DNA of 32,000 nt from Erysipelothrix larvae (GTDB lineage: Bacteria > Bacillota_I > Bacilli_A > Erysipelotrichales > Erysipelotrichaceae), in the NCBI RefSeq assembly GCF_001545095.1, contig NZ_CP013213.1, positions 420,001 through 452,000 of the forward strand, read 5' to 3'. Below are positions 3,363-21,166 of the stretch, piece after piece. The notes beneath the pieces were generated by a model, which did no database searches, was not told the origin of the DNA, and saw only the letters and a list, made by a program, of their open reading frames with translations. Made by a program: the position numbers and the translations under genes. Within the stretch, counting starts at the first letter, position 1. Each line of letters starts with the position of its first letter.

Positions 3363-4872
3363 AACTTGTAAATGTGGTCATATCCATAATGATGTTGCGT
3401 AAAGAGGTCCATTCCGCAAGATTTGGAATGTGAGACAACTTCACAACACGCGTACTCAGCTCCTCTTGATTTGGTAAACTATAATTCGAGACAATTAAGT
3501 TTGGGTTTAAGTGATCCAGTGTCACTTTAGTGATAGGCTCATCGATAATATAGCAAGAATCAATATTTTGAGGAATCATGAATTTCGTTTGTTGGATTAA
3601 GAAATCGTCATACCCTGATTCACCTTGGAAGGCAAAGAGTACTTTAAGGTTATGATGCTTCAAATGACTTTGCAGGGAGAAGTGCATGAGTGCAAGCCCC
3701 ACGGCAATGTCCTCCATGAAATAAAGCGGGAACAGATTTTGACCCTCTTTAGAATACAGATGTTGCATCCAAATCTTATAATATTCACCGATTGCTTCTT
3801 TCGCAAAGACTTTCACAACTTCGGTTGTTCTTTGAAATTGTGGCGATAGGAGTGTCAGTGTATCTAGGTTAATCAGATACGAGCGCATCTTGTTTAGAAG
3901 ATCGCCTTCCACTAAAGATGGACTGAACTCACTGCTTAAAAAGAGATTAATGCGTTCAAGAAGATCCAAGTCAACATAGCGGTGAAGAATGAACTCGCGA
4001 TTACACTGCTCACCTAAACTACAGGTTGGTTCACTGTAGGAAACACAGTCAAGGATTAAGACAAAGGCCCACATGACCTCATCATCACTGAGTTTTGTGA
4101 TTTGGAATACATTGCTGAATGCATTTCTAAATGCATTTGAGAAATCAGCATAATGGTACATCTTCAATATGCGATCACGGAATGTTTGATCTAGTTCAAC
4201 GTAATGCTTATACATGATTCGATTGCGGATAATCATGATCCACATCGTCGCTCTGAAGTGACTAATATGGATATTTGGTTTAATTAAGTCAATCGAACCT
4301 TCGATCAGTTCACGATAAGCAAGGGCATTGAGTTCAAAGTCCTTATCTACTGCAAAGAAATCATTAAATTCTTGATAGAACGAGAACAAGAAGTATCGAA
4401 TATCTGTTTCACTGCCTACAAAATCAAGGGGTGAAAACGAAATCGAAATATTGAAGTCCTCGAGTCCTACATTGATTTGTCTCAAAATACGTTTTAGAGA
4501 ATAGGTAGATAAATAAAGATCAGAAGCTAAACGCTCGAATGTTGTTTTCTTGTTGTTGAAGATACCATCTATAATACGATATACATCGGTTTCACGTGCA
4601 AGATCCATAATGACTGCAGGAATTGACACCCCTTCTGGATAGCTCAAGAAATATCCGTCTTTTCCTAAAGACTCAAGTTGGACGTGACAGGGGAGACTTG
4701 TATTAAATGCTCGTATATCAGCGCGTAATGTCGGAACTGAACAACCAATCACTTTTGAAAGATCAACAATACTCACAGTTGTTCTTACTTTACTGAGATA
4801 CTGAAGTGCTTGAACTTGTCTACAGAACTGTCTGTTTATGGATAACGACATAAATAACTGTTTTGAGTGCAT
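3361..4872 (-). CDS. Mga-family transcriptional regulator, paralog 2
   Basis: The ORF is 503 aa and is preceded by AGGAGG. It has an N-terminal HTH (VSIVDLSKVIGCSVPTLRADIRAF). It aligns by eye along its full length with 12353-13840, for example GYFLSYPEG(V/L)SIP, TDVY(R/K)IIDG(I/L)F, ESDIRYF and the C-terminal IPNLAEWT.LRN.I.D. Confidence 0.75.
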   Translation of the reverse strand: MHSKQLFMSLSINRQFCRQVQALQYLSKVRTTVSIVDLSKVIGCSVPTLRADIRAFNTSLPCHVQLESLGKDGYFLSYPEGVSIPAVIMDLARETDVYRIIDGIFNNKKTTFERLASDLYLSTYSLKRILRQINVGLEDFNISISFSPLDFVGSETDIRYFLFSFYQEFNDFFAVDKDFELNALAYRELIEGSIDLIKPNIHISHFRATMWIMIIRNRIMYKHYVELDQTFRDRILKMYHYADFSNAFRNAFSNVFQITKLSDDEVMWAFVLILDCVSYSEPTCSLGEQCNREFILHRYVDLDLLERINLFLSSEFSPSLVEGDLLNKMRSYLINLDTLTLLSPQFQRTTEVVKVFAKEAIGEYYKIWMQHLYSKEGQNLFPLYFMEDIAVGLALMHFSLQSHLKHHNLKVLFAFQGESGYDDFLIQQTKFMIPQNIDSCYIIDEPITKVTLDHLNPNLIVSNYSLPNQEELSTRVVKLSHIPNLAEWTSLRNIIMDMTTFTS

Positions 4873-6931: not shown

Positions 6932-7243
6932 ATCGTAATTTGAACGTTTTCTATTGGTTTGGTGGGGATAAGAGGGATTTTGGGTTCTAAGTTTGTGATT
7001 GTGTGTAGTGATAAGTCTTTTAGTGTTTGTGAATCGTTATCTTAGTAGAGGGCAGATACTCTTCGTGTTTTTTTTAATTTCGTATGCATGGTTTTTGTTG
7101 TCTGTATGTAGGGTTGGATGTATGTGCTTGAGGATAATGAGTAGGGGGTGTTGTCTCATTAAACGGTTTATTTTGTTATGGGTGTATAAGGTTACACATA
7201 ATTTAGTAGTGTGGAAAGAAATAATAATGGGGGGAAAACCAGT

Positions 7244-10200
7244 ATGAAGGATAAACGATTATCGAATGTGTTGGTATCATGTTTTATGTTTTTAATCATG
7301 GTTGCGTCGTCAATTTCTTTTTTTAATGTACGGGCAGAAGATGTTGTCTGTAGTGAATTATCGCCTGTGGAAGGGTTTGTGAAAAGAGAGACTTATGCGC
7401 GTTTTTTTGATGAAAACATGGAAGAATATGCGACGAAATATTTATTGGAGTTTTATGTACAGGGGCGTCTTAACACAACGCTTTCTCGTGTAGTTGAAGA
7501 TGGTAAACCGTATACGATTTTAGAGCGTGATTTACCCAAACATGAATCAAAGTGTTGGCGTGTTATTGAGGTGACACGTAATTTTGAAGCATCAGATGTC
7601 TATGGGTTGGGGAGTGTCTTAACCTACAGTCGTGATTTTAGGAATGTCTTAATACGTCTAGTTCCGTTTGATGAACCTGATCATATCGTGGAGCATCGTG
7701 TTGATTTTATGGTAGGACAGGATGTGTTTACATCAATTATGGTTCGTGATGGGAATGTTGTAAACATGCCAAAAGAGACACCACCTAAACCGAATTATAA
7801 ATTGCAGTTTAAGGGATGGTTTATTGATGAGGATCTTTTGATTCCTTTTGATAGTACTGAACCGATAATTGGTTATTTGAAGCTTTATGCAGGGTTCAAA
7901 AACACCTTCACAGTAACGTTTAAGGATGCTTCGGGTGAGGTTTATGATATACGTGAGGGTGAAATTGGTAGAGGGATTGATGCGCCGTCGCAAAACCCAA
8001 AATCGCTGGTTGAGGGTATGGATTTTCAATTTTGGATGAATGAAAGCGATCGCAGCGATGCTATGGTTGATTTCCCACTTGGAGTATATAAAGACATAAC
8101 CCTGATTCCTTATTTTAGTAATGAGAGTACTGTGAATTTTTATTCAAGTAATACGTTAATTGATTCTCAACACGTTAAAGTGGGTGAATCGATACAAAAC
8201 TTCCCAACGCCACAAAATGAAGGGTATCATTTTGAAGGGTGGGGGTTGAAGGCGGATGCTTCATGGGAAAATCAAGAAGATTTCTTTGATGTGACGACAC
8301 CGATAACCAGTCCAATACAGTTATTTGCGATATGGCGTCCCTTGATTGTTTCATATAGAGTTGATTACTATGTTGAGAAATTGAACTTTAAAGGGCGACC
8401 TGGGACTAATCTACATAATTATCAACATACTGCAAGCGTTAATATTGATGAATCAAACAGTAGTGTCTATGCAGGTACTGTAATCGATGGAGATCAACTT
8501 CGTGATTATGCAAATCAGTATTTTACCGATGCAACGAATGGTACACTTGGCACACATGACGTCAGCAGCTTGAATCTTGATTTGTTGTTTTCTGAGTTTA
8601 GTTTTGGTGCTTCTACTATCATCCAAGGGGATGGTTCATCCATCATCCAGGTATACTATACACGCATCCCATTAAGTGTTCGTTTTGATTTAGGATCGAG
8701 TTTTGAAGCAATTGAGATTAATGGGGAAGTCTATCATCAATCACAATCTGTTTATACTTTAATTGCGAAATATGGTCAAGATATCAGTGAACTCTTTCCA
8801 GGACAAAGTAATGTGTGGAATAAAGATGGGAATCAATTTGAATCGTGGTCCGTAGTTGGGACACAGAATGCTGTGGGTCAGGATGTTAAGGTTCTTGGTT
8901 CACCTTCAACGTTCCCCTATTGGTTGGTTCCTGTTAACTATGAAACCAATCGGTTAATCACATTAAAAGCAAATGTTGCTGTCAATAGCGAACAAGCCAG
9001 TCGTCATGTTTATGTGTCAGTCAGTGAACAACACTTAAAAAATGTGCCGATATCAGAAGTTTTTGAGTTGAGTCAAGTAGAAGGTCTTAAAGTGTTGGCA
9101 CCACACTTCATACGCCATGAAGGTGTTACTTATGAACATGTGGATAAATATGATGAAACATTTATTGTATCCAATGGATTGCAATCCAGTAGTGATGCAC
9201 TCCCAGTCATTAGCGGTCAAACCTTTCATTCCAGTCATATAGTGAACCATGTCGAAATGAAGCGTGTCTCTCAATTCATTTTTTACACGCGAGATGAAGT
9301 CGCGCTTCACTTTGATCCAATGCAAGGATCACTTGAGCCCGCTGAGAAGGTCATGGCTATCCCATCGGGTGATACGATATCACAGTGGCTTAAGGATCAT
9401 GAGATGGATCTTCCAGTGCCAAAGCATCCAAAAGAGAATCATCAGTTTTTAGGGTGGTATACGACCAATAATCCAAACAATGCGTTAGAATTTGATCCTC
9501 AAAGTAAGATGCCGACACAAAAGTGGACCGTGTTTGCCTTATATGAACCAAACGTGAATTCAGTTGAGATCTATTCCAGCACTCTTGATGGCAATTATAT
9601 AGACTTCCAATCCATTAATCATGGGGAGCCTGTGAAAGAGATTTCTAAGTTCAAGAAGGGGTATTATTATGATGGATTGGGGCAATTCATAGGATGGGGT
9701 GTCTATGCACCAGATTTGATTCAATATAACTTTAATGAAGCCGTATATAAAGATCTACAAATATATGGGATGTGGAAAAACAACGACTTTAGAATTACTT
9801 ATGACTTGGGGGATGGTTTAGGTATGGCTCCAGTCGATACGAATACCTATCAATTCAATGATCGTGTTTCTTTACCACAGAGATTGGATATTCGCAATTC
9901 TAAGGGTGATTGTTTAGTGGGTTGGGTTGATACGAAGTCCAATGAATTCTATGACCCGGATATACGTTATCGCATTCAATACGATACAATCTTTAAGGCA
10001 GTGTATCTTCCACAAAATTCTGATGTATCAACGGTAGAATATCATGAAAATAATGATTCAGAAGGACAGAGATTAACGTATGTCCTTTTGGTAAATGATG
10101 TGCTGAATCGAACGTTTGATAAGGGATACTTTGAAAGAGAAGGGTATGTTCAAATTGGGTGGTCTACTACCTCTAGTGGTCCTGTTGACATTGGTCTATA

Positions 10201-12304
10201 TGAAATAATCCAGTTGAATGATACAATCCGTAAGAACGACTTGGGAGATATAATATTATTTGCAGTGTGGGAGAAAATTCCTACCTATTCAATCACCTTT
10301 TTGATTGAAAAGACGGGTGGTGGGACGTTCATTAAGGATGAACAAAGTCTTGATACGATTCGTTTTGACGAAATCAAAATTGGTCAGAAGTTTAAAGATA
10401 TTGTGACTGAGTATCCTAAAGTACAGGCAGATGAGGATTATGTATTCTCACATTGGAGCTTTGATCAAGTAGAGGCCGAGCCGATGTATGTTCAACAAAA
10501 CCTTGTCGTTTATGCTCATTTTGTACAAACCAAGACGTTGGATTTAAGCTTAGTGACCCTGACGCCATCAACAAAGACATACAGTGAACAAGACCCAACT
10601 TATCAGGTTGAATGGCCCTTTGATGCACCACAGGAACATTTTGATTTTATCACCAATCGTGAAGCAGGTGAAACGGTACGCGAAACACCTTATGAAGTAA
10701 CACTCAGCATTCGACCAAAACCTCGATATGAACGATTTTATACAATGGTGAATGCCGTAGCACCAAGCACACTAAGTATTTTACCGTTAAATGTGAGTGT
10801 GAGTCCACAGGACAATGAGAAGACATATGGAATGGATGATCCAGAGATATTGAGTGCTGTATCTGTTGACTTTGAAGTGCTTGAGCATGCAATGGCTGAT
10901 TTTAAGAAACCTGAAGTTGTCTTCACGGTGGAGCGTGACATAGGAGAAAATGCGGGAGATTATGAAATCAACGTCCACCCAATCAGTGATCCAAATTATA
11001 CTTTCACAACCCATAAGGCAATCTTTAGGATTCACAAACAAACGACGCCTTTAGTCCTTGAAGCACCTAATCTATCAAAAATCTATGGAGATCCTGATCC
11101 GACTCAAACCGAACTAATAAAAGGTGTCACGGGTAAAAATCTTTCATTACGGGATACCTTTGAAGCACTGAAATTGAGTGTAAGTCGTGAGCCAGGAGAA
11201 GGGGCGAATGTTTATAAAACAACCGTGAATTTTGATCCAATTGTGTATGAAAATTATGCGAGTGTTGAAGTTGTAGATGGGACACTCACAATTGATAAAC
11301 GGAACATAACATTACATGTGGACAATCTCCCTCAAGGCGATACGGTATTGTATCAAGACAGCATATTACCGCCACTACGTGCAAGACTTGATCAAAACAC
11401 ACCTCTGGCATTCAATGATGAAGCCTTAAATTATGAAGTTTATCTTGTAGACTATGAGGGTTCATTTGACAAGATGACCTATGATATCAGTTGTCGGTTT
11501 GATCCTGAGGATTTAGTGAATCGAAATTATAATATTAAGGTGGTGAAGGGAACCTTAACCTTGCGTGAAAAACCTGTCGTTCCATCACCCCCTGAATCTT
11601 CAAAGGATCGTGAAGTTGGTCCAGAGAAAGTAAAACCACCTGTCCCAAATGTTCCAGAAACAGGTGAAGAAACAAACCAATCATCCAGCGAAAAAACTCC
11701 TGATTCTAAATCATATGAAACAACAAAAGAGCCGGATGTTCAAAAAGATGCTATAAGTCCTCCGGTGAATAAAGAGGCAGTGATTGAACACGGTAACAAA
11801 GGGGTAGTGATTGAACACGGTAACAAAGGGGAAGTGGTTGAACAAGGTAACAAAGATGCAGTGGTTGAACCTGGTAAAAAAGAAGAAGTGGTTGAACCTA
11901 GTAAAAAAGAGAATACGGTTCCCGTTGATCGTACCAGTGACCTCAATTTTACACAAAATACGACATGGTCGCTTGTGAATTTAGCGGTCGCACTGTGTAC
12001 TTTTATCTCAGCATGTCTTCTTGCACTAGGACTCATTAAACAAACAAAACTTAAGGGTGAATTGAGTGATGAAGACTCACCTACTATGTATTGGACCCAT
12101 GTCCGTACCTGGCAAATCTTATCAGTACTTGGTGGACTGAGTGCTGGAATTCTTTTTATCATCACACAAGATATGGTGGGTAAGATGGTATTGAGTGATC
12201 GATGGACCCCTTATATGGTAGCCTTATTGGGAATTCAAGGCGTATGTGGTTTAATTGGGTATCTAAAAAAGAAACGCGCACACGATTTGAATAACGAGAA
12301 ATAA
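7244..12304 (+). CDS. Giant (1686 aa) surface protein with a signal peptide, multiple Listeria-Bacteroides (Flg_new) repeats, MBG-type domains, a P/E/K-rich stalk with 9-aa tandem repeats, and a three-TM C-terminal anchor
   Basis: The ATG at 7244 is preceded by a GGGGGGA RBS. The signal peptide is MKDKRLSNVLVSCFMFLIMVASSISFFNVRAED. Flg_new-like units recur (F.GW...........(L/I)YA.W). MBG-like units are present (KTYGMDDPE, KIYGDPDPT, ...GDYEI...NYN...GTLTI). The C-terminus has three hydrophobic segments and no LPXTG. Confidence 0.85.
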   Translation: MKDKRLSNVLVSCFMFLIMVASSISFFNVRAEDVVCSELSPVEGFVKRETYARFFDENMEEYATKYLLEFYVQGRLNTTLSRVVEDGKPYTILERDLPKHESKCWRVIEVTRNFEASDVYGLGSVLTYSRDFRNVLIRLVPFDEPDHIVEHRVDFMVGQDVFTSIMVRDGNVVNMPKETPPKPNYKLQFKGWFIDEDLLIPFDSTEPIIGYLKLYAGFKNTFTVTFKDASGEVYDIREGEIGRGIDAPSQNPKSLVEGMDFQFWMNESDRSDAMVDFPLGVYKDITLIPYFSNESTVNFYSSNTLIDSQHVKVGESIQNFPTPQNEGYHFEGWGLKADASWENQEDFFDVTTPITSPIQLFAIWRPLIVSYRVDYYVEKLNFKGRPGTNLHNYQHTASVNIDESNSSVYAGTVIDGDQLRDYANQYFTDATNGTLGTHDVSSLNLDLLFSEFSFGASTIIQGDGSSIIQVYYTRIPLSVRFDLGSSFEAIEINGEVYHQSQSVYTLIAKYGQDISELFPGQSNVWNKDGNQFESWSVVGTQNAVGQDVKVLGSPSTFPYWLVPVNYETNRLITLKANVAVNSEQASRHVYVSVSEQHLKNVPISEVFELSQVEGLKVLAPHFIRHEGVTYEHVDKYDETFIVSNGLQSSSDALPVISGQTFHSSHIVNHVEMKRVSQFIFYTRDEVALHFDPMQGSLEPAEKVMAIPSGDTISQWLKDHEMDLPVPKHPKENHQFLGWYTTNNPNNALEFDPQSKMPTQKWTVFALYEPNVNSVEIYSSTLDGNYIDFQSINHGEPVKEISKFKKGYYYDGLGQFIGWGVYAPDLIQYNFNEAVYKDLQIYGMWKNNDFRITYDLGDGLGMAPVDTNTYQFNDRVSLPQRLDIRNSKGDCLVGWVDTKSNEFYDPDIRYRIQYDTIFKAVYLPQNSDVSTVEYHENNDSEGQRLTYVLLVNDVLNRTFDKGYFEREGYVQIGWSTTSSGPVDIGLYEIIQLNDTIRKNDLGDIILFAVWEKIPTYSITFLIEKTGGGTFIKDEQSLDTIRFDEIKIGQKFKDIVTEYPKVQADEDYVFSHWSFDQVEAEPMYVQQNLVVYAHFVQTKTLDLSLVTLTPSTKTYSEQDPTYQVEWPFDAPQEHFDFITNREAGETVRETPYEVTLSIRPKPRYERFYTMVNAVAPSTLSILPLNVSVSPQDNEKTYGMDDPEILSAVSVDFEVLEHAMADFKKPEVVFTVERDIGENAGDYEINVHPISDPNYTFTTHKAIFRIHKQTTPLVLEAPNLSKIYGDPDPTQTELIKGVTGKNLSLRDTFEALKLSVSREPGEGANVYKTTVNFDPIVYENYASVEVVDGTLTIDKRNITLHVDNLPQGDTVLYQDSILPPLRARLDQNTPLAFNDEALNYEVYLVDYEGSFDKMTYDISCRFDPEDLVNRNYNIKVVKGTLTLREKPVVPSPPESSKDREVGPEKVKPPVPNVPETGEETNQSSSEKTPDSKSYETTKEPDVQKDAISPPVNKEAVIEHGNKGVVIEHGNKGEVVEQGNKDAVVEPGKKEEVVEPSKKENTVPVDRTSDLNFTQNTTWSLVNLAVALCTFISACLLALGLIKQTKLKGELSDEDSPTMYWTHVRTWQILSVLGGLSAGILFIITQDMVGKMVLSDRWTPYMVALLGIQGVCGLIGYLKKKRAHDLNNEK
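11771..11905 (+). repeat. Five in-frame tandem copies of a 27-bp unit (9-aa repeat K-x-x-V-(I/V)-E-x-G-(N/K)) inside the giant surface protein gene
   Basis: Copies lie at 11771-11797, 11798-11824, 11825-11851, 11852-11878 and 11879-11905 (aaaggggtagtgattgaacacggtaac and variants). They translate as KEAVIEHGN KGVVIEHGN KGEVVEQGN KDAVVEPGK KEEVVEPSK. Confidence 0.9.
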
Positions 12305-12313
12305 AAAATAGTT

Positions 12314-12354
12314 AAAAAAAGAAAATGGCCGAAATTAAATTTGGCCATTTTTTT
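12314..12354. terminator. Bidirectional intrinsic terminator between the giant surface protein gene and Mga-like paralog 3
   Basis: aaaatggcc (12322-12330) pairs with ggccatttt (12343-12351). An A7 run lies upstream and a T7 run downstream. It sits exactly between the stops at 12304 (+) and 12353 (-). Confidence 0.7.
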
Positions 12355-13840
12355 AAGATTTATGCGTTGCGATATCAAGAATAAGATTACGCAAGTGCGT
12401 CCATTCCGCAAGATTGGGAATATAGGACAAGCGTACGACAGGACACGGGATATCTTCAGAATTGGGAATGTCATAATTCGCTACGACCAAATCAATCTGA
12501 TTGTCTTTGATTTTCTCAAAGGTAATGGGTTCATTGAAGATGTATTGTGGTTTTGTGGAATGTGGAATCATAAAATAGGTTGCTTGGATTAAGAAATCAT
12601 CATAACCCGGTTCTCCTTGAAAGGAGAATAAAATCTTCACTTCATTTTGTTTTAAATGACTCAACAAAGAGAAATGAAGCATAGCGAGTGCAGAGGCAAC
12701 ATCTTGAGTATTGGTGATTTCAAACACATCTTGAGCGTGTTTGGTTTTTAAATGTTCCATCCACGTTAAATAAAACTTGTTAATGGATTCTTTGGTAAAG
12801 ATTCGTGTTGCTAATGAGAGCTTTTGAAAAGAAGGGGAGATTTGCGATAAGGATCTAAGATTGATTAAGAACGAACGCATGTTTTCAATGTAGGCACTTG
12901 ACATTATTGATGCATCAAATTCTAAGGATAAAAAGTTATCGACGCGCTTTAAGAAGTCATCTGTTACTTCGCGGTGAAATACAAAGGTTTCATAATTCAA
13001 TTCACTATAGGAAACACAATGAAGCATGATTAAATAAAGCCATCGAATTTCATCTTCAGAAACATCATCCAGATTAAACTGATCTGAAAAAGCCTGTTGA
13101 ACACAGGTCTTGAATCCCTGATAATTATCCAAAGACTTGGATTCAATTGAATAGGGTGTTTTGATCGTTAAGGTGTTTTGAGTACTTAGGCGTTGTTTTA
13201 GAATCATAAACCACAAGGTTGTTCTAAAGTAATTGAGATGCAGCTTTTTACCATTATAATTGGATGCAGTTTCTAAAAGCAGTTGATAGGTTGGACTGTT
13301 TGTTTCATAGTCAGGATCGGTAACAGTTAGGTCGTTGAAGTCTGAATAAAAGGCATAGAAAAAGTAGCGAATATCCGATTCACCGCCTTTAAATTCTACA
13401 GTCGATGTGGACAGAGAAATATTAAATTGTTTCAATTCTTCATTAATATGGGATAAGGTGCGTTTTAGAGTAAAGGGTGAAATAAACAGGTTATAGGTTA
13501 GTTCATCAAAGGTATAAATTTCATTGTGAAAGAGCCCATCTATAATCTTATAAACATCAGTATTCTTTGCAAGTTCCATGGTAATTTTAGGGATTGAAAG
13601 TCCTTCAGGATAACTTAAAAAGTAACCGTTTTTCCCTAAGGATTCCACGCGCATATAGGGTGGGAGCTCTTCATTGAGTTCTCGAATGTCGGAACGAAGG
13701 GTTGGAATGGAACATTCAACGTGTTCTGCCAGTTCAATGATACTGACTGAAGAGTGCACTGAAGACAAGTAGTAAAGTACTTGGACTTTACGGCTGAATT
13801 GTTTGTTGTTGTTGAGCGCGTAGAATAAACGTTTAAACAT
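12353..13840 (-). CDS. Mga-family transcriptional regulator, paralog 3 (closest to paralog 2)
   Basis: The ORF is 495 aa and is preceded by AGGAGG. The HTH is VSIIELAEHVECSIPTLRSDIREL. By eye it is roughly half identical to 3361-4872. The two genes share a 17-nt identical DNA block, gtccattccgcaagatt (12399-12415 versus 3407-3423). Confidence 0.75.
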   Translation of the reverse strand: MFKRLFYALNNNKQFSRKVQVLYYLSSVHSSVSIIELAEHVECSIPTLRSDIRELNEELPPYMRVESLGKNGYFLSYPEGLSIPKITMELAKNTDVYKIIDGLFHNEIYTFDELTYNLFISPFTLKRTLSHINEELKQFNISLSTSTVEFKGGESDIRYFFYAFYSDFNDLTVTDPDYETNSPTYQLLLETASNYNGKKLHLNYFRTTLWFMILKQRLSTQNTLTIKTPYSIESKSLDNYQGFKTCVQQAFSDQFNLDDVSEDEIRWLYLIMLHCVSYSELNYETFVFHREVTDDFLKRVDNFLSLEFDASIMSSAYIENMRSFLINLRSLSQISPSFQKLSLATRIFTKESINKFYLTWMEHLKTKHAQDVFEITNTQDVASALAMLHFSLLSHLKQNEVKILFSFQGEPGYDDFLIQATYFMIPHSTKPQYIFNEPITFEKIKDNQIDLVVANYDIPNSEDIPCPVVRLSYIPNLAEWTHLRNLILDIATHKS

Positions 13841-14150
13841 TGATGGCCTCCTTAATCATAGCTGGTTTTTTGAGTGCTATTTTATGCTGTTGCACAAAAA
13901 AGAACCGAAGTCGTTTCATTTAACAATGAATTTTGTTTTAGCTGATTTATTGCTACCTATACTATATCTCAAAACGAATCGGTTATCATTAGACATAATT
14001 CTTTTTTATACCAAAAATTAATTTTATTTTCACAAGAACGCCTTATTCACCAAATCACCGGTGTTTTTTTATGAAAAACATGGGAAAGTCAATCTTCTGT
14101 GTCTATTTATTTGGTATAAGAACCAAAAACTCACACAGAAAGGAATTGAC

Positions 14151-16586
14151 ATGAAGAAACGATTCACAACAATGTTATTTCGAGGGCTACTGTGTTTCAT
14201 GATGGTGCTAACAAGTATCCCCTTTATTAATCCTCTAGATGTGGATGCCAGTTCGGTATCATCAAAAATCGATTACATGAACATCCACTATACGATGGGC
14301 TCATATAAGGGTCAACTGGGTCGCATCTATGTTGATAAACTTTTAGCTGTATGTATTGAACCAAGTACAGAGTTTATTGGGGGCGATTATGCGAAACACC
14401 CCATTAACAACAGTGGATTAAGTGAAACAAAACTAAAGAAGATTCGTCTGATTGATTACTATGGTAAACAGATGAACATGGCGGAGGATGACCATGTCTA
14501 TGCAACCGTACAATTGTATATTTGGGAAGTGATATCAGAGCGCATTGTATCGTCAATTAATGGAGACTTATCACTGATACACTATGAATCAATTAAAGAG
14601 CAAATCAATCGAAGCATTACGCGTCATGATATGATGCCTTCATTTCATAACAAAACATTCGAAGTTGAAGAAAACACGACCTTTGAACTGTTGGATACAA
14701 ACGCTGTGTTAAGTCAATTTGTTGTTACTTCGTCAAATCCAGAGGTTGCAACCCTGACGCAAAGCGGGAATAAGCTCATCATCAAGACACATAAAGAAGG
14801 AACCTTTGAACTAAAGGGGCAAAAAATCGATGCCAAGGATGTCGGTGACAGCTTTTCCTATTTAAAACCAGGACTTCAAACCTTAGCAACCCTAAAGTTG
14901 GATGATCCACTCAACCTTTTTGTATCCTTCACATCAACCACATCAAATGAATCCTTTGAGTTAACAAAACTGGATGATCAAGGAAATGTTGTGGAAGGGG
15001 CAGTGTTTGACATTGGGGGAATTAAATATACCACCAACAAAAACGGTAAAATTCTAATATCAGATCTCAAACCCCAGACCTTAACCTATCAAGAAACCTT
15101 TGTACCCGATCCTTTAATCGTGGATCATAAAACCTACGAAGTGAGCATTGAAAAAGGAAAGACAGCCCTTGTTTCTGTGGAAAATAAGACCGCAACTGGA
15201 AAAATCACGCTGAAAAAAACCACTGAAGATGGAAACGGTGTTGAAGGGGTACGCTTTGGAATTTATCGCAATCAAATTGAAATCATGCAAGTAATTACAA
15301 ATTCAAAAGGAGAAGCACAAAGCAGTGCTTTACCATTGGGTGAGTATGAAGTGATTGAATTAAGTGTTCCTGATTATCTCATCCTCGATCAAACACCACG
15401 AAAAGCAGTGCTTTCCTATAAAGACCAAGACACGCCCATTGTGTATGCGCACATCGATATCACCAATTTGTATCGACCGGTCGCAACAATCAGCACCTCA
15501 CGCATTCGTATCGATACTCAAAAGGCTGAGGATGGTTTGCTTGTTGAAGCTTGGTTTTCAAAAACCATGCATTATCACGATGCAGTCAATGACTTTAAAG
15601 AAACCACTGTACGGGTAGAAGTGGTGAATCAGACTTATCAATCCATAGTTTATTCCCAAGAGTACACGGTGCTAAGTTTACCTGATTTTGATGTTTATCA
15701 GCTTCCATCTCACATTCAAGGCATTGATGAATCGCATCACTATGAAGTGAGATTGTCGACTCAAGAAAGTCATAAAGTAACCCTTGAACACCCATCCATC
15801 AATACCTTAGGGGTTACTGCATCCCAACAATCCATGTTTGAAAACAGCCAAGATACCCCGACACTGTATGTTGAAGGGATTGTTCGTACAGAACGCTATC
15901 AAGGGCAAAGCATGCTGATGTATTTTGAGCGCTTTGAAATAACAGTTCCCCAAATGGATGCATTGATTGCAGGACGGGGATTTGCTTATGATGTCACAAC
16001 ATCGTATTCCAATGACCTAAACAAAACAACACAGGTTAGCCTTACCCTCATGGCGCATAATGAACTGGTGGATGGGGATTGGTATGCGCGCACGGCTTCG
16101 ATGGCGATGATTCCTTTAGAAAATAAAGGAACAATGCATCAGGTACCGCGTGTGTATGCCTATAAAGATATCAGTGGCGCACTTATTAATGAAACGACGT
16201 ATCAAACCCTGACACAACAACAAAAAGAACAATACCGGGATGGGGGTCATCAAATCTTGACACCCCTGTGGTCTTCTGACTTGGGAATTTATCATCTGAA
16301 ACTTGTATCAGATCCAATTGGGGTTCATGAAATTACAGTTACCTTTAGTGATCAAATCGAATTGTATGCGTATCTGTTTGGGTGGGAAAATGATGAAGGC
16401 CCTTCACCAACAATCAAATCAGACCAAGTGTTGGTATCTCCAATATACAGTGCTGATGCGAATCAAAATGGCACCCTTGATGTATGGGAAGACACACCGA
16501 TGCCAGACAATTGGGGGATCACGCAAAAGGATGGATCAAGGACCTTATCCATCGCCGAGAAACAGTTTTTAGACCTTAACAATTAA
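14151..16586 (+). CDS. Secreted 811-aa adhesin-like protein with a signal peptide, a possible thioester (TQXA-like) domain, two SpaA/Cna-B-type Ig-like domains and a ~350-aa C-terminal region of unknown fold; no sorting signal
   Basis: The ATG at 14151 is preceded by AAAGGA. The signal peptide is MKKRFTTMLFRGLLCFMMVLTSIPFINPLDVDA/SS. Possible thioester motifs are AVCIEP (Cys codon 14352-14354) and TVQLYIW (Gln codon 14511-14513). Cna-B/SpaA-like units are FELTKLDDQGNVVEGAVFDI... and GKITLKKTTEDGNGVEGVRFGIY...LPLGEYEVIELSVPDYLI. There is no LPXTG or C-terminal TM segment. Confidence 0.7.
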   Translation: MKKRFTTMLFRGLLCFMMVLTSIPFINPLDVDASSVSSKIDYMNIHYTMGSYKGQLGRIYVDKLLAVCIEPSTEFIGGDYAKHPINNSGLSETKLKKIRLIDYYGKQMNMAEDDHVYATVQLYIWEVISERIVSSINGDLSLIHYESIKEQINRSITRHDMMPSFHNKTFEVEENTTFELLDTNAVLSQFVVTSSNPEVATLTQSGNKLIIKTHKEGTFELKGQKIDAKDVGDSFSYLKPGLQTLATLKLDDPLNLFVSFTSTTSNESFELTKLDDQGNVVEGAVFDIGGIKYTTNKNGKILISDLKPQTLTYQETFVPDPLIVDHKTYEVSIEKGKTALVSVENKTATGKITLKKTTEDGNGVEGVRFGIYRNQIEIMQVITNSKGEAQSSALPLGEYEVIELSVPDYLILDQTPRKAVLSYKDQDTPIVYAHIDITNLYRPVATISTSRIRIDTQKAEDGLLVEAWFSKTMHYHDAVNDFKETTVRVEVVNQTYQSIVYSQEYTVLSLPDFDVYQLPSHIQGIDESHHYEVRLSTQESHKVTLEHPSINTLGVTASQQSMFENSQDTPTLYVEGIVRTERYQGQSMLMYFERFEITVPQMDALIAGRGFAYDVTTSYSNDLNKTTQVSLTLMAHNELVDGDWYARTASMAMIPLENKGTMHQVPRVYAYKDISGALINETTYQTLTQQQKEQYRDGGHQILTPLWSSDLGIYHLKLVSDPIGVHEITVTFSDQIELYAYLFGWENDEGPSPTIKSDQVLVSPIYSADANQNGTLDVWEDTPMPDNWGITQKDGSRTLSIAEKQFLDLNN

Positions 16587-16613
16587 TGAACTAAACAAAG
16601 GAAGCATAAACGT

Positions 16614-17060
16614 ATGAGAAAATACTTCATAACATTTCTAGTCTTTGGGTGTGGAATGGCGCTGTTTTTCATGCTGTATCAATACAATATGAAGTCAATT
16701 AAACGTGATGGGGTGATGGAAACTCTGGAAAGAACCAGTGAAGTTGCGTATATCAATGCTTTGGATGGATCATATCGAATCACCAAAGGATCCATGAATA
16801 TCACAAGTCAAGAAACCTATGAAACGATATTTAAAGAGATCTTTCTTAACGACTCCACGGTTAATCTTGATCAAGAACACGTCATCTTTGCCTTTGAGTA
16901 CTTAGTTGAACTTGAAGATGGCACAACACTGAATACCGCATTACCCCAACAATTCATTCACCAAGGTGGCGTTGTGAAGGGGATTCGAAATACAGTATGG
17001 GTAGATGGTCAAGATTATTCGGTACGCTATATCTTAGATATATCGAAAGGGCGTGAATAA
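16614..17060 (+). CDS. Small membrane-anchored protein (148 aa), a possible pilus assembly factor or minor pilin-like protein
   Basis: AAGGAAG RBS. An N-terminal TM helix (YFITFLVFGCGMALFFMLY) is followed by a ~120-aa soluble domain. The gene sits immediately upstream of, and is coupled to, the secretion ATPase gene. Confidence 0.5.
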   Translation: MRKYFITFLVFGCGMALFFMLYQYNMKSIKRDGVMETLERTSEVAYINALDGSYRITKGSMNITSQETYETIFKEIFLNDSTVNLDQEHVIFAFEYLVELEDGTTLNTALPQQFIHQGGVVKGIRNTVWVDGQDYSVRYILDISKGRE

Positions 17061-17063
17061 ATT

Positions 17064-18317
17064 TTGTTCAAAAGCAAATCAAACCATGAAACCATTCAAT
17101 CCAATGCCGACATCGGTGGCATGATGGCTGTGATTGAAGATTCCATTAACACAGATTATCCAGAACTATCTGTTAAAGCACTTTTTGATAAACAGGCAAG
17201 AGAAACCTTGCGCATCAACCTCATTAAGGATCATAAGGGTCGATTAAGTGAAGACGCATCCCACCGTATCTTATCCGAGATTGTTGGACTGGGCTTTTTT
17301 GAAGAACTTATCAAAGATGAATCCATTACAGATATTGGCTATAACGGAACGGATTTATGGGTCAAGACCAGTGATACAAAACGCCGCATGCATCACCCTG
17401 ATCTCAATGAAGCCTATATCCTAAAGATCATTCAACGGTTCTCAAATTATGTCCATCAAGAGTTTTCTGAGAAATCACCGATATTAAATGCCCAATTGGA
17501 TAACATACGCATTAATGCAATCCACCGCAAACTCTCACCAACAGGGACTACTATGTCCATGCGCCATGCCCGAAATCGCCTCGTATTAACACACGAAAAC
17601 TGGCACCAATTTGCCCATGATGCAGTGTTTGATCTACTGGATTTATGTCTAAAAATTGGCATCAACCTTGTGATTACAGGGGAAGTTGGAACGGGGAAAA
17701 CTGAACTTCAAAAGCTGTTGATTGGTTCAATTCCTGATGACTTTAAATTGATTATGGTAGAAGATACCTTGGAAACACATCTTAAGGATATTTATCCTGA
17801 TAAAGATATCTTGTCATGGCTTGTTGCACCAGGGTTTAGTCACACTCAGTTTATTAAAGAAGCCCTTCGAAATGACCCAGTCTATACAGTGTTATCCGAA
17901 GCACGCGATCACGCAATCTATGAAATCCATCAATCCGTGTTATCGGGACACAAGATACTATTAACGGCCCATTCCGTGAATGCTCGCGCATTTATCCCAC
18001 GCATGATTGGGATGACTAAACAAAAGTTTCACGTCGATGAAGCTTCCTTGAAACAAGAAATCCTGCGTTACTATGATTTTGGCATTCATTTGGATAAACG
18101 CACGGTGCATGGGAAAACCCTGCGATTCATTTCAGAAGTTGTGGAATATACCGATGCAGGACTTCAGACCTTGTATTCAAAGGATGTCACCATTGATCCA
18201 CAAACCCAACACCTCAGTGAAACCCAACAGTTTTATCCACTTTCAGATGCGATGGTTGATCGCTTATATAAATATGGTTATTCACCACAATGGAATGAGC
18301 GAATCAAAGAGAGGTGA
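17064..18317 (+). CDS. Type II/IV secretion-system ATPase of the CpaF/TadA (T2SSE) type
   Basis: Walker A is VITGEVGTGKTELQKLL, the Asp box is LIMVEDTLE, the Walker B-like motif is TVLSEARD and the His box is ILLTAHS. The N-terminal domain contains ITDIGYNGTDLWV. The start is uncertain: TTG at 17064, 3 nt after the upstream stop, or ATG at 17121. Confidence 0.85.
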   Translation: MFKSKSNHETIQSNADIGGMMAVIEDSINTDYPELSVKALFDKQARETLRINLIKDHKGRLSEDASHRILSEIVGLGFFEELIKDESITDIGYNGTDLWVKTSDTKRRMHHPDLNEAYILKIIQRFSNYVHQEFSEKSPILNAQLDNIRINAIHRKLSPTGTTMSMRHARNRLVLTHENWHQFAHDAVFDLLDLCLKIGINLVITGEVGTGKTELQKLLIGSIPDDFKLIMVEDTLETHLKDIYPDKDILSWLVAPGFSHTQFIKEALRNDPVYTVLSEARDHAIYEIHQSVLSGHKILLTAHSVNARAFIPRMIGMTKQKFHVDEASLKQEILRYYDFGIHLDKRTVHGKTLRFISEVVEYTDAGLQTLYSKDVTIDPQTQHLSETQQFYPLSDAMVDRLYKYGYSPQWNERIKER

Positions 18318-18323
18318 TGTTTG

Positions 18324-19127
18324 ATGAAACAGGTGATGAATATTGACCAACTCAATGCCATTCACATGAACTATGAAGCAAAACTCACACGGAAGCACAT
18401 CGCAAAGATGCTGATATTCCCCACACTGTATGTCCCAACTTTATTATTCACAATCTTCTTAAGGTGGTGGTTAATCCCAATTGGGTTACTTGCAGGATTA
18501 GTGTATGGGGGATTGGTGATGTTGCCTTTAATCATCACAGCAAACTACCAAAACAGAGCATTTAAAGAACGCAATCGATTTGTCAATAACTTAGCACAAA
18601 GCTTACATCGAAAAAATATCACGATCTTGGATGCACTGCGTGAAGTCTCAACCCATCGTTTAAAGGGAGAGTTAAAAAATGATGTGGATGTCTTGGCGTA
18701 TCATGTCGCCATACACGATACCAAAACACGTAAAAATGCGTATCAAGCGTTGATTCAGAAATATGAACACGATCGACTCTTTGTGCAATTTATTGAACAT
18801 GTAATAACGGTAGACTTGAACGGACTTGATTCACTACAACCCTTGAATGAAACAGCACAATCACACGACAAAGCTCTGTTATGGCAAGAACACTTTATTG
18901 ATTCAAAGAAGCAATCGCTCATTTATTTTATCACCAATAATGTACTGGCGTTTTGCTTGTGTGTGGCTGTTATTTGGCTGACGTGGGATAACTACATAGA
19001 ATGGTTTGTGAAAACACCAGTTGGGTGGGTGTTTGGCTCACTTTATCTTTGTTTGACCTTCTTTTATAACCATCGCTTTGTTGTTGATTACTTTGATGAA
19101 TCAATCATGGAGGTGAAGGTCAAGTGA
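18324..19127 (+). CDS. TadB-like inner-membrane platform protein (T2SSF-like topology)
   Basis: The ATG at 18324 is preceded by GAGGTG. Two N-terminal TM helices are followed by a ~130-aa helical cytoplasmic domain and two C-terminal TM helices. The gene lies directly downstream of the ATPase. The family call rests on topology and synteny, not on a motif match. Confidence 0.55.
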   Translation: MKQVMNIDQLNAIHMNYEAKLTRKHIAKMLIFPTLYVPTLLFTIFLRWWLIPIGLLAGLVYGGLVMLPLIITANYQNRAFKERNRFVNNLAQSLHRKNITILDALREVSTHRLKGELKNDVDVLAYHVAIHDTKTRKNAYQALIQKYEHDRLFVQFIEHVITVDLNGLDSLQPLNETAQSHDKALLWQEHFIDSKKQSLIYFITNNVLAFCLCVAVIWLTWDNYIEWFVKTPVGWVFGSLYLCLTFFYNHRFVVDYFDESIMEVKVK

Positions 19128-19861
19128 AACAATCGTTTGGGTTGTCGCTTTTACCCCAAGAGATCGTGCAAAAGAAACATGAAATGGGAACAACCTATCA
19201 TAAAATTGCATCGTGGAGTCTCAAAATGCACTGTGGTCTTGTGGGAATCTTAGTGTGTGCAGGATGGATCGCGGTTCAAACATCCATGAAAGGGGTCGCG
19301 TGTGGTCTTGTGTTATCAGTGGTATTATTGCGAGCCTTAATGCTCTTCAATGTGAGACAAGCGTACCAAGGGTTTCGAGACGCGCGCAATGTAGAGTTTC
19401 TCTATTTCTTCAGTCTTTTAGTTCCACACCTCTCACAAGCGGTTGGTGTAAAAACTGGATTGTATCGGATTCTCACAAAGCTTGAGATACGCCTTGAAGA
19501 TCAAAGCATCTTGAAACAAGGTGTGAATCGTTTGGTCATCCAGATGACCAATCACCCGGGAAATATTGAACCCTTCCTCGAGTTCGCCCGCCTTTGTTCA
19601 GGGACTGAACTTGCGGAAGATGTTGCGGTCGCGCTGTTTGACTTCCAACAAAACAGTGATGACCAAGAGGCCATAAATCGCCTTAAAGATAAAGTTAATA
19701 AAGCACTGGATAAGCGCATGGAGGATGTTGTAACGCGAAAGATATCACGATTCCGATGGTATTCATCGCGTGTGGTGATGTCAGTATTCGTCCTCATTCT
19801 TGGCATTTTAGGAACCTCCATTTGGGCAGAAATTATGCGTGCATTCAGTGTCATTAAATAG
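19124..19861 (+). CDS. TadC-like inner-membrane platform protein (T2SSF-like topology)
   Basis: The GTG start overlaps the upstream stop (GTGA), with GGAGG about 11 nt upstream. Two N-terminal TM helices are followed by a ~130-aa cytoplasmic domain and a C-terminal TM helix (VVMSVFVLILGILGTSIW). It is the second platform paralog, as in Tad loci. Confidence 0.55.
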   Translation: MKQSFGLSLLPQEIVQKKHEMGTTYHKIASWSLKMHCGLVGILVCAGWIAVQTSMKGVACGLVLSVVLLRALMLFNVRQAYQGFRDARNVEFLYFFSLLVPHLSQAVGVKTGLYRILTKLEIRLEDQSILKQGVNRLVIQMTNHPGNIEPFLEFARLCSGTELAEDVAVALFDFQQNSDDQEAINRLKDKVNKALDKRMEDVVTRKISRFRWYSSRVVMSVFVLILGILGTSIWAEIMRAFSVIK

Positions 19862-19871
19862 GAGGAACGCC

Positions 19872-20237
19872 ATGTTTAAAGCAGAAAAATCAGTCGTAGT
19901 TGATTTTCTTACGGTGTTTATATGGGGAATGATTACAATTTTTATGGTTGTATTTCTCATTGTGTTTAAACAAGTCTCCGACAATAATCACTTCAGTGCC
20001 TATGCCAGCAGTGTCATTTCACGCCATGGTGGCTTAACGCAAAAGGCTAAATCTGTCATTGACGCTTATAGTGAAAACCACTACAACGGTCGTTATTTTA
20101 TTGAAAGCGAGATTCAAGAGGCGCAACACTATGGAACACCGCTAACCTTTATCATCTCAAATAACACAAAGGTTTTGTATTTTGATATTCCCATACGCAT
20201 TCAGTTTAGTGGCTCTGCCACATCGAGGATTCGGTGA
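19872..20237 (+). CDS. Pseudopilin-like protein (121 aa; TadE/TadF-like size and topology) with N-terminal MFKAEK followed by a TM helix
   Basis: AGGAGG lies 8 nt upstream of the ATG at 19872; the track start at 19839 is an in-frame GTG within the preceding gene. The N-terminus is MFKAEKSVVVDFLTVFIWGMITIFMVVFLIVF, followed by a ~85-aa beta-rich domain. Confidence 0.6.
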   Translation: MFKAEKSVVVDFLTVFIWGMITIFMVVFLIVFKQVSDNNHFSAYASSVISRHGGLTQKAKSVIDAYSENHYNGRYFIESEIQEAQHYGTPLTFIISNNTKVLYFDIPIRIQFSGSATSRIR

Positions 20238-20377
20238 TGTTTAATGCAGAGAAACAAACAGCCTATGAGCTGGTCATGATTTTGTATTATGTGGGAATCT
20301 TTATTACCGTGATTACAGTTGTATGGGGTTTGTTTGACCAAACCATCATGATTGAACACCCATATCACTTATTTTAA
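20237..20377 (+). CDS. Unlisted 46-aa mini-pilin-like membrane protein (MFNAEK followed by a TM helix)
   Basis: This ORF is not in the supplied track because it is under 60 aa. Its ATG overlaps the upstream TGA (TGATG). The translation is MFNAEKQTAYELVMILYYVGIFITVITVVWGLFDQTIMIEHPYHLF, with a TAA stop at 20375-20377. It shares the F-x-AEK-plus-TM pattern with both neighbours. Confidence 0.55.
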   Translation: MFNAEKQTAYELVMILYYVGIFITVITVVWGLFDQTIMIEHPYHLF

Positions 20378-20382
20378 AAAAC

Positions 20383-20619
20383 ATGAAAGGAACCAATAAC
20401 CAAATGAACAAACAAACAGTAAATCAAAAATCAAACGAAATGAAGGGATGTTTCTATGCAGAAAAAGAACAAACGAACACATTAGTTGGGATTATCTTTA
20501 TTCTCGCGATCGCAGTTGGAGTCGGAACTATTTTTCTCTCATCGTTTCCAAAAATTGGTGATCAAGTTATTGAAACAGTTGAACGCCAATTTAACCGCAT
20601 TGAATCAGGCAATGACTAA
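20383..20619 (+). CDS. Flp-like prepilin candidate (78 aa) with a polar N/Q/K-rich leader ending in Gly, then CFYAEK and a TM helix
   Basis: MKGTNNQMNKQTVNQKSNEMKG / CFYAEKEQTNTLVGIIFILAIAVGVGTIFLSSF... The pattern G-XXXX-E resembles the Flp processing motif G/XXXXEY. The predicted mature size of ~56 aa is typical of Flp pilins. An alternative start is the ATG at 20440 (MKGCFYAEK). Confidence 0.55.
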   Translation: MKGTNNQMNKQTVNQKSNEMKGCFYAEKEQTNTLVGIIFILAIAVGVGTIFLSSFPKIGDQVIETVERQFNRIESGND

Positions 20620-21166
20620 CAGTGTCGCTTTAAAACTCAAGAAACGCTTGAGTCAATTGGTTTCAAATCCACGGCTTATTGATGACTTTAATATCTGTGT
20701 GGATTTGATGGTAGATGAAGGGTGTACAGTCCTACACCTCTTTGAATTGTTTCATGAGTTTGGCCATTATTGTAAGTGTATTGAACGAAACGGAACTGTG
20801 ACTCTGATTCAAGTGTCGCAGTTCATCTTTCTATTTAAAGACGATGCAATCACCCTAAACATCACCACACAACAATCCCAATCCTTCATTCTATGCACAC
20901 TTCCATTTGATGATCACCTATTAGAAAATCTACGCGCAGTATGTTATGAAGGGATGGTGTTTAGTCAAGCATGTATTCTCTACTGTTTTCCTTCCCTAAA
21001 AGCATGGGTCTTTAATGTGGTAAATGCGCCAAAATGGCCCTTTTATCGAAAAGGCAGTGATGCATATCTGTATCACAAGGGATTAAAGACACTAAAAGAT
21101 GCCCATCATTTTAATACCAATGCGCACCGCGAAACACTTAAAATAAGAGGTATGGATGGGTTATGA
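20612..21166 (+). CDS. Soluble Cys/His-rich 184-aa protein with an HExxH motif (HEFGH), last gene of the Tad-like operon
   Basis: The ATG at 20612 overlaps the preceding gene by 8 nt; the track TTG start at 20486 would run through the pilin gene. HEFGHYCKC is encoded at 20753-20767 onward. No TM segment or signal peptide is present. Confidence 0.5.
   Translation: MTNSVALKLKKRLSQLVSNPRLIDDFNICVDLMVDEGCTVLHLFELFHEFGHYCKCIERNGTVTLIQVSQFIFLFKDDAITLNITTQQSQSFILCTLPFDDHLLENLRAVCYEGMVFSQACILYCFPSLKAWVFNVVNAPKWPFYRKGSDAYLYHKGLKTLKDAHHFNTNAHRETLKIRGMDGL

Follow-up and report, generated by a model that had tools for sequence, protein, structure and literature searches.

What kind of machine is encoded by the compact operon at positions 14151-21166 of the window, as the whole 32-kb stretch of Erysipelothrix larvae DNA analysed here (contig NZ_CP013213.1, positions 420,001 to 452,000) is called? 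The window is chromosomal DNA, its ATPase is 100% identical to E. larvae AOC36_02040, and all statements on genes lacking in E. larvae hold for the window. An initial annotation had described the operon as ten packed ORFs (open reading frames) that could encode a distinct pilus or adhesin-display machine with likeness to Tad/Flp systems. Reading of the DNA together with the ORFs gives nine plus-strand genes, all intact and tightly packed, and they form a real operon of translationally coupled genes. The range of junctions reported earlier, from an 8-nt overlap to a 27-nt gap, was recovered: there are gaps of 27 nt at 16587-16613 and of 3 nt ahead of 17064 and of 18321, and overlaps at 19124-19127 (GTGA), 20235-20239 (TGATG) and 20612-20619 (8 nt). 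The start of the sixth gene was moved from 19839 to the ATG at 19872, which has an AGGAGG ribosome-binding site upstream, the seventh gene starts with the ATG at 20237, and for the ATPase gene a start at 17064 is used here, the RefSeq start being 17124. In outline, the operon is almost certainly the block of genes 34-41 known from plasmid pLS20, the core of this block is likely, as judged from sequence comparisons, to be a diverged and minimal Tad-type filament machine, and the truly unusual point, which the initial annotation did not notice, is that the E. larvae copy is detached from any type IV secretion system (T4SS).

A tblastn search of plasmids with the ATPase matched 1579 records, including pLS20 of Bacillus subtilis natto. 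The corresponding regions of pLS20 and of a Paraclostridium bifermentans plasmid have the gene order of the window and encode proteins of near-equal size, namely a thioester-domain protein, small proteins, an ATPase of 402-406 aa and proteins of 267-270 aa, 240-245 aa, 120 aa and 47 aa. In BLASTP comparisons the 148-aa protein of the window matched its Paraclostridium homolog (E 3e-8), the ATPase matched pLS20 p37 (E 2e-88, 40% identical), and the proteins of 268, 245 and 121 aa matched p38 (E 1.5e-39), p39 (E 2.5e-18) and p40 (E 2e-17), respectively, while homology to gene 41 was seen at the profile level only (hhalign 82%, E 1e-5). The two blocks thus agree in gene order and in protein sizes, and pairwise homology covers the C-terminal part of the adhesin and the products of genes 36, 37, 38, 39 and 40. 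In a locus survey limited to one genome per species, 34 loci were found, and the whole block was present in about 22 of them, all from Bacillota, with hosts including Bacillus, Peribacillus, Niallia, Listeria, Enterococcus, Vagococcus, Paraclostridium, Terrisporobacter and Halolactibacillus. Like blocks also occur on plasmids, among them pXO2-size plasmids of Bacillus anthracis and plasmids of Listeria, Enterococcus and Paraclostridium. The nearest relative of the window locus is L003 from an uncultured Erysipelothrix, whose ATPase is 62% identical. In the gene table of pLS20, gene 34 encodes the adhesin Tie and gene 37 a putative VirB11, with the entry 'unknown' for genes 36 and 38-41 (Val-Calvo et al., 2021; PMC8557374). 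The locus type is therefore already known as the 5' part of the pLS20-family conjugation operon, with a machine that is uncharacterised there. Of the earlier proposal, the distinct machine survives as a Tad-like core, but not as a new locus family: a check of the gene order for novelty shows that it has been published and that the adhesin has been characterised. In the literature to mid-2026, coverage of which was incomplete, no paper was found that names pLS20 genes 36-41 as Tad or as a type IV pilus.

The first gene (14151-16586, plus strand) encodes an adhesin of 811 aa with a Sec leader, a thioester domain (TED) containing Cys68, SpaA/CnaB domains and a C-terminal domain of about 375 aa. 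The earlier description of a Cna-B/thioester-like adhesin lacking a sorting signal was borne out by Pfam matches to SpaA (E 4e-20) and, weakly, to TED (E 0.01), as neither an LPXTG motif nor a C-terminal transmembrane (TM) segment was found in the protein, which ends with ...EKQFLDLNN; among the scanned window ORFs there was no sortase. Residues 284-788 match pLS20 Tie (BLASTP, E 4e-22), and the invariant Cys68 falls on the same alignment column as Cys68 of Tie, a residue necessary for Tie function (Gago-Cordoba et al., PMC8092201). From its sequence the protein is assigned to the Tie-family class II thioester-domain adhesins, with a predicted thioester; like Tie, it has a TED with the equivalent Cys and no sorting signal. 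Tie itself, which does not depend on sortase, is devoid of LPXTG motif, lipobox and wall-binding module, and the question of its attachment was left open by its authors, who suggested that the C-terminal region is responsible (PMC8092201). Tie has been found in the wall fraction and in surface foci and drives clustering in liquid (PMC11730352), and it matters mainly for mating in liquid (PMC8092201, PMC11730352). The C-terminal domain of about 375 aa forms the extreme C-terminus of every module-linked adhesin, that is, in all 25 pLS20-type loci and in the window, where the adhesin was matched by a hidden Markov model (HMM) of this domain with an E of 7e-130. The N-terminal parts of the adhesins differ in length from 561 to 2095 aa across these loci. 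Every pLS20-type locus, be it from Bacilli, Clostridia or Erysipelotrichia, links the machine to an adhesin that has this specific domain. On one Bacillus dicomae contig (L021 27-8779 and L026), three Tie-type adhesin genes stand in tandem, each with the conserved C-terminal domain at its end. The whole module, together with a T4SS, is present twice on this contig, as separate copies.

The third gene (17064-18317, plus strand) encodes a secretion ATPase of the TadA/CpaF/VirB11 superfamily, the homolog of pLS20 gene 37. The T2SSE-family motifs recognised earlier (GEVGTGKT, MVEDTLE, SEARD and LLTAHS) are present and lie on invariant columns of a 26-sequence family alignment, and the Pfam T2SSE model matches with an E of 1.5e-16. 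The best match in the PDB was CpaF (9e-15, 58 bits), followed by FlaI and VirB11 with 45-47 bits, and in BLAST comparisons the ATPase scored 78-92 bits to CpaF versus 57-73 bits to VirB11. It stayed under every NCBIfam cutoff, with VirB11 (TIGR02788) at 84 bits for a cutoff of 250 and TadA at 82 bits. In a crude neighbour-joining tree, the pLS20-type and Bacillota Tad-like ATPases formed one clade outside of proteobacterial CpaF and P-type VirB11; neither this tree nor the NCBIfam scores nest the window ATPase in the VirB11 or ComGA clades, a placement that the initial annotation had named as a check. With VirB11 of Agrobacterium or HP0525 of H. pylori, the ATPase has in common the superfamily and a similar size, and its homologs outside the window are, as with VirB11, linked to conjugation genes. 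It is partnered, however, by T2SSF-like proteins, and VirB11 systems are without such partners.

These partners are encoded directly downstream by the homologs of pLS20 genes 38 and 39 (g38 and g39), a TadB-like platform protein of 268 aa (18321-19127, plus strand) with TM helices on both sides of a cytoplasmic helical bundle, and a TadC-like platform protein of 245 aa (19124-19861, plus strand). Single sequences of these two membrane proteins or of the small proteins matched nothing in Pfam or NCBIfam, and sequence-profile searches of the PDB with the g38 and g39 family alignments gave nothing relevant. In 22-sequence alignments, both families display a TM region, a helical cytoplasmic domain of about 130 aa and a second TM region. 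The comparison with Tad proteins made use of intermediates from distant loci of the common ATPase clade (L025 on a Priestia plasmid, L027, L029 of Holdemania and several metagenome-assembled genomes of Bacilli), which include a protein named 'type II secretion system F family protein' by NCBI and matching Pfam T2SSF with an E of 3.8e-5. In hhalign comparisons, the g38 family matched these intermediates with 97.5% (E 5e-12), or with 98.8% (E 5e-17) when 69 representatives were used, and the intermediates matched canonical proteobacterial TadB/TadC with 96.6% (E 5e-10). The merged g38 profile matched TadB with 96% (E 4.5e-9) over 215 colinear columns and TadC with 37% (E 3.6e-4), and the 69 g38 representatives alone matched TadB in unchanged register with 56% (E 1e-4). 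On the side of g39, the family matched TadC-like intermediates with 98.1% (E 1e-13), these intermediates matched TadB/TadC with 92.8% (E 4e-7), and the merged profile matched TadC with 64% (E 7e-5) and TadB with 15% (E 1.7e-3); the profile support that links g39 to Tad ranges from 64 to 79% and is weaker than that for g38. The merged g38 and g39 profiles matched each other with 95.9% (E 5.4e-9), which identifies the two proteins as paralogs.

Predicted structure and gene fusions point the same way. As a word-indexed protein search gave 2 matches for g38 (and 1 for a concatenated g38+g39 profile), AlphaFold was run on 2-sequence alignments. The g38 model had a predicted local distance difference test score (pLDDT) of 68 overall and of 80-90 for residues 80-190. 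In a Foldseek search of the PDB, the cytoplasmic domain of this model matched the N-terminal domain of PilC (2whn) with a template modelling score (TM-score) of 0.74 and a root-mean-square deviation of 3.0 Å, and the cytoplasmic domain of EpsF (2vmb) with a TM-score of 0.72; the matches with a probability of at least 0.9 were PilC, EpsF and SpoIIIAB (6bs9) only, with probabilities of 0.94-0.99 and TM-scores of 0.62-0.74. When 1.84 billion representatives were searched exhaustively with an HMM, only 89 relatives of g38 were retrieved, and five of them (P0147, P0193, P0194, P0198 and P0204) are g38-g39 fusions of 545-572 aa, whose two-domain layout resembles PilC/GspF. The TadB/TadC-like pair of the initial annotation was thus supported for g38 by transitive profiles, domain fold and fusions, and for g39 as well, though more weakly. 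From the profiles and the model, g38 may be called a TadB-type T2SSF protein with good confidence, and g39 its predicted TadC-type partner with moderate confidence.

The distant loci that supplied the intermediates (L025, L027 and L029) also encode RcpC/CpaB (E 1e-10), an SAF domain, a weak ParA-like gene, DUF5411 and DUF4320. In L025/L043, which is on a Priestia koreensis plasmid, the order is Ig-like surface protein, DUF5411, SAF/RcpC, ParA-like, CpaF/VirB11, T2SSF, second platform protein and DUF4320, and homologs of this type of locus are found on pXO1-size Bacillus anthracis plasmids of about 181 kb. By its gene content, L025/L043 is a more canonical Bacillota Tad-like locus, and in evolutionary terms it is useful as a stage between classic Tad and the block of pLS20. 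Compared with the Tad/Flp systems themselves (Caulobacter Cpa, Aggregatibacter Tad and Bifidobacterium Tad), the window block is alike in the order of ATPase, platform protein B and platform protein C, in its single CpaF-like ATPase followed directly by a pair of one-domain T2SSF paralogs, in having Flp-sized single-helix subunits together with larger pilin-like proteins, and in that distant loci of its ATPase clade keep CpaB/RcpC. It is unlike them in lacking TadZ/CpaE, CpaB, TadV/CpaA and a secretin, the Flp G/xxxxEY motif and any Pfam Flp/TadE match, in platform proteins that are detectable via intermediates only, and in its obligate linkage to a thioester adhesin. The position of the pilin-like genes downstream of the platform genes, which had been put forward as unusual, is not a difference, as in Bifidobacterium tad the pilin genes likewise lie downstream of tadC.

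Four small proteins are candidates for the subunits of a filament. The second gene (16614-17060, plus strand) encodes the 148-aa, DUF5411-related homolog of pLS20 gene 36, with an N-terminal hydrophobic helix and a domain of about 100 aa, and the sixth (19872-20237, plus strand) the 121-aa, DUF4320-related homolog of gene 40, with the N-terminus MFKAEK, a TM helix and a small beta-rich domain; both are candidate minor pilins. The seventh gene (20237-20377, plus strand) encodes a single-helix protein of 46 aa with the N-terminus MFNAEK and a homolog in L003 (6e-7), a candidate Flp-sized pilin, and the eighth (20383-20619, plus strand) a protein of 78 aa (59 aa from the ATG at 20440) with ..FYAEKEQTNT, a TM helix and an FPxIGD motif, a candidate major pilin. 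The gene-36 family matched DUF5411 in 11 of 12 members and the gene-40 family DUF4320 in 4 of 12, both families reach the distant Tad-like loci (hhalign 95% and 96.6%, respectively), and their members have a hydrophobic helix almost at the N-terminus and then a small domain. Neither family was significantly related in hhalign to proteobacterial TadE or to the other. The proteins of 46 and 78 aa are paralogs (hhalign 90.8%, E 1e-6). The 78-aa protein, whose L003 homolog is 54% identical, has in common with the gene-41 family, besides the profile match given above, a post-helix FPE/FPxIGD motif, and it matched MSEIKGQLLGILLV ('MSEIKGQ') small proteins of distant loci with 72% (hhalign); it is the probable ortholog of pLS20 gene 41, as far as sequence permits this to be judged.

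The N-termini MFKAEK, MFNAEK and ..FYAEK of three Erysipelothrix proteins follow a pattern MFxAEK, each followed by a helix, whereas in pLS20 and the other pLS20-type loci the products of genes 40 and 41 both start with MLD/MLE. The N-terminal motif common to the subunits thus co-varies between lineages, as expected if one machine handles them. In some gene-36 and gene-40 homologs of other loci, the N-termini are short and end with Gly, and the pilin-like proteins of the window have no Gly at position -1 ahead of the hydrophobic helix. In agreement with the earlier description, neither TadZ/CpaE nor Peptidase_A24 was detected among scanned window ORFs of at least 100 aa, and the parts of pLS20 examined contain no prepilin peptidase. 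The ninth gene (20612-21166, plus strand) encodes a soluble protein of 184 aa, and the HExxH motif ascribed to it is present as HEFGH. It is 38% identical to L003:13659-14231, HEFGH being kept in that one clear homolog, and it has no match in Pfam, NCBIfam or the PDB. This gene is additional with respect to pLS20 and accompanies the module only in the Erysipelothrix lineage; that its product might process the lineage-specific MFxAEK N-termini is pure speculation.

In most block loci, VirD4 (together with a pLS20_p028/VirB6-like protein) or VirB4 is encoded 2-5 kb downstream, and the exceptions are three loci whose sequence breaks off soon after the block and two Amphibacillus loci. In the 32-kb window, Pfam and family HMMs detected no VirB4, VirD4, VirB6-like gene or relaxase. 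Past its HExxH homolog, L003 has TrbL-like, VirB4-like and M23 peptidase genes, with ParB upstream, and the window has none of these; in tblastx the homology of L003 to the window spans 15027 (inside the adhesin gene) to 21073 only, and the nine window genes equal their L003 orthologs in length. The E. larvae module has lost, or never possessed, the genes for DNA transfer. Relative to the pLS20 operon, it is without antitermination, surface-exclusion and T4SS genes (46-54), relaxase and VirD4, and unlike pLS20 it is chromosomal and adjoined by an EbpR/Mga-type regulator. The two Amphibacillus loci, which are chromosomal as well (L013 1580-5121 of A. marinus and L024 9582-13123 of A. cookii), contain the core genes 36-40 and no VirB4/VirD4 within 8 kb. 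Their neighbours are WXG100 and LXG-toxin-like genes (type VII secretion), and in L024 a Tie-like adhesin is encoded 5.5 kb upstream of the core, with LXG-type genes in between.

The explanation that we favour for the whole, if by a modest margin over disbelief, is that the operon is a T4SS-less copy of the recipient-attachment block of pLS20, encoding a minimal Tad-derived pseudopilus that displays a sortase-independent adhesin. The machine would consist of a hexameric TadA/CpaF-like ATPase, the TadB-like and TadC-like platform proteins and four pilin-like proteins, with the DUF5411-like and DUF4320-like proteins presumed to be minor pilins and the two Flp-sized proteins presumed to be fibre subunits. 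The ATPase would turn the platform and so extract the helix-anchored subunits from the membrane, and these would build up a short polymeric fibre, a pilus or pseudopilus, across the thick wall. The adhesin may ride on this fibre or be retained by it through its C-terminal domain of about 375 aa, and the thioester domain would thereby be exposed for covalent attachment to a target surface. A prepilin peptidase is perhaps unneeded, because the subunits start with a short common motif and not with a Gly-ended leader. That the machine displays the adhesin we infer, and give it slightly less than an even chance; filament formation, docking of the adhesin, leaderless pilins and regulation by the EbpR-family regulator are likewise inferred. 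As there are no genes for DNA transfer and an EbpR/Mga-type regulator adjoins the operon, its role in E. larvae is most likely to be in adhesion or aggregation rather than in conjugation.

Several observations weigh against this explanation. When compared directly with proteobacterial TadB/TadC, neither the g38 family (E 0.16) nor the g39 family (E 0.086) gave a significant hhalign match, and the link to Tad depends on the intermediates and on a model from a 2-sequence alignment. For that model there was no Foldseek match at E 0.001, and the g39 model from AlphaFold2 was unusable (pLDDT 46). The small proteins match neither the Flp_Fap model, which was compared with 35 small proteins, nor the TadE model of Pfam, they contain no G/xxxxEY or KG/FTLxE processing site, and the locus has no TadZ, CpaB or prepilin peptidase. 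Leaderless pilins were raised as a possible answer because processing site, Flp/TadE match and peptidase are lacking. Nearly all other loci have the block in physical linkage with a T4SS, so that the block may have a role inside the T4SS, and it is possible that a T4SS is encoded elsewhere in the E. larvae genome. To our knowledge, no filament has been reported for pLS20. Gram-positive conjugative elements are said not to form conjugative pili (PMC8557374).

The linkage to T4SS genes keeps up the main rival, the default view in the literature, in which the gene 37 product is a VirB11-type energiser, the products of genes 36 and 38-41 are additional membrane subunits of the Gram-positive T4SS channel, and the E. 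larvae locus is the non-functional remnant of an integrated conjugative element. VirD4 and/or VirB4 are indeed found 2-5 kb past the block in about 20 loci, including L003, and VirB11 is the nominal top NCBIfam match of the ATPase; its 84 bits are far under the 250-bit cutoff, though, and CpaF was the stronger match in BLAST and in the PDB. The composition of the block may also be read in this way: the GC content of the operon is 0.40-0.42 versus 0.35-0.38 in the flanks, and its GC skew (14000-21000) is flat at about 0 where that of the flanks is mostly +0.1 to +0.2, both of which are compatible with horizontally acquired DNA. A remnant is hard to reconcile, however, with nine intact and coupled genes of the same length as in L003, or with a kept segment that extends exactly from the adhesin to the HExxH gene with clean borders. 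Also, Amphibacillus keeps the block genes in the absence of VirB4/VirD4 within 8 kb, and T2SSF-like partners are a hallmark of type IV filaments and not of T4SSs. The relic is therefore considered unlikely, although it stays alive because the linkage to a T4SS is near-universal elsewhere.

As improbable as the relic, in our estimate, is an export machine of the type II secretion system (T2SS) kind, in which the Tad-like pseudopilus would serve as a conduit or work like a piston to drive the adhesin, or a different cargo, across the wall. The adhesin would then be set free or kept in place by another component, and the fibre itself would not carry it. The homology of the core to type IV filaments fits export equally well, the adhesin is not built as a modular pilin and carries an ordinary Sec leader, and relatives among Tad systems and T2SSs secrete proteins. 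Monoderms, however, have no outer membrane to cross, the co-inherited C-terminal domain of the adhesin fits stable docking better than transient export, and Tie was found in wall-associated foci (PMC11730352). Less probable again is an ordinary Tad pilus that would itself be the adhesive organelle, with an unrelated adhesin gene as its chance neighbour and a prepilin peptidase encoded elsewhere in the genome. In Gram-positive Tad loci, such as those of Bifidobacterium, tadV is often located elsewhere, and some gene-36 and gene-40 homologs of other loci have the short N-termini ending with Gly. In addition, canonical tad loci occur in Erysipelotrichales (PMC12786226). Against it stand the constant linkage, in all pLS20-type loci, of the machine to the adhesin with that specific domain, and the lack of Gly at -1 in the window pilin-like proteins. 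Three known systems were rejected: a P-type VirB11 system, as the ATPase falls outside the VirB11 clade and far below the model cutoff; a ComG competence pilus, as the ComGA model gave 42 bits for a cutoff of 300 and there is no KGFTLxE prepilin motif; and a sortase pilus, as the adhesin has no LPXTG or TM segment and the scanned ORFs include no sortase. With sortase pili and TIE adhesins (Ebp, Spa, BaTIE and SfbI), the locus has in common the combination of TED and CnaB/SpaA-type domains and an adjoining EbpR-family regulator, but the window has neither LPXTG nor sortase nor backbone subunits with pilin motif or E-box.

This regulator, an AcpB/EbpR/MafR (Mga-like) transcriptional regulator (12353-13840, minus strand), matches NCBIfam NF053736 above its cutoff (E 9e-55) and Pfam Mga and HTH_Mga. 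It is divergent from the operon and has no counterpart in the homologous Erysipelothrix element L003, and it is considered a candidate regulator of the operon that belongs to the context and lies outside the conserved module. The divergent intergenic region of 310 bp (13841-14150) presumably contains the promoter and operator; a promoter scan of it found sigma-70-like matches (e.g. 13990-14018) that were weak and no more frequent than by chance. A scan for terminators gave none that was convincing 3' of 21166. A terminator-like hairpin, ACTCAAGAAACGCTTGAGT, with a poor T tail, lies at 20635-20653, directly 3' of the stop of the 78-aa gene and within the HExxH gene, at its 5' end. The window gave no match to Rfam and no tRNA.

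In the neighbourhood of the operon, three Mga/EbpR/MafR-type regulators are encoded within at most 14 kb (1103-2611, plus strand; 3361-4872, minus strand; and 12353-13840, minus strand), interleaved with very large surface proteins, and this 14-kb region looks like a surface-protein and adhesion island. One of the surface proteins (7211-12304, plus strand; 1697 aa) has Listeria-Bacteroides repeats (Flg_new) and MBG domains, and its tail consists of tandem 'GNKG/D-VVE' repeats and then several hydrophobic segments at the end, with no LPXTG. Downstream of the operon, a protein of 753 aa with a legume-lectin domain is encoded on the minus strand (27112-29373); its repeat region at about 27.8-28.2 kb matches the repeats of the L003 adhesin (L003 8400-9100) with 50-56% identity in tblastx, which suggests that the two proteins have common or shuffled repeat modules. 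The other window ORFs encode an EAL protein, very large surface proteins, a pentapeptide protein, RlmN, a nucleoside phosphorylase, a bactofilin and a sigma-factor fusion.

If the Tad idea is wrong, the locus is a mere relic of a conjugative element. If it is right, two questions become testable, namely how Tie is retained on the donor surface and how mating pairs form in liquid without a known conjugative pilus, and genes 37-41 as a minimal Tad-type machine are a concrete candidate answer to both. That E. larvae and Amphibacillus have T4SS-free copies is an argument that the block can function alone. With three or four pilin-like proteins besides its one ATPase and its two platform proteins, and with no peptidase, TadZ or CpaB, it would be the most reduced Tad-like system described. 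As a tentative proposal, to which we give clearly less than an even chance, the pLS20-type block of 'VirB11 plus unknown genes' may be a Tad-derived conjugative or adhesive Gram-positive pilus with leaderless pilins and thus no need of a prepilin peptidase, which carries a covalently binding thioester adhesin through the wall and which E. larvae and Amphibacillus have domesticated for non-conjugative adhesion, in E. larvae under an EbpR-type regulator. If true, this would explain the anchoring of Tie and would overturn the view of Gram-positive conjugation as pilus-free.

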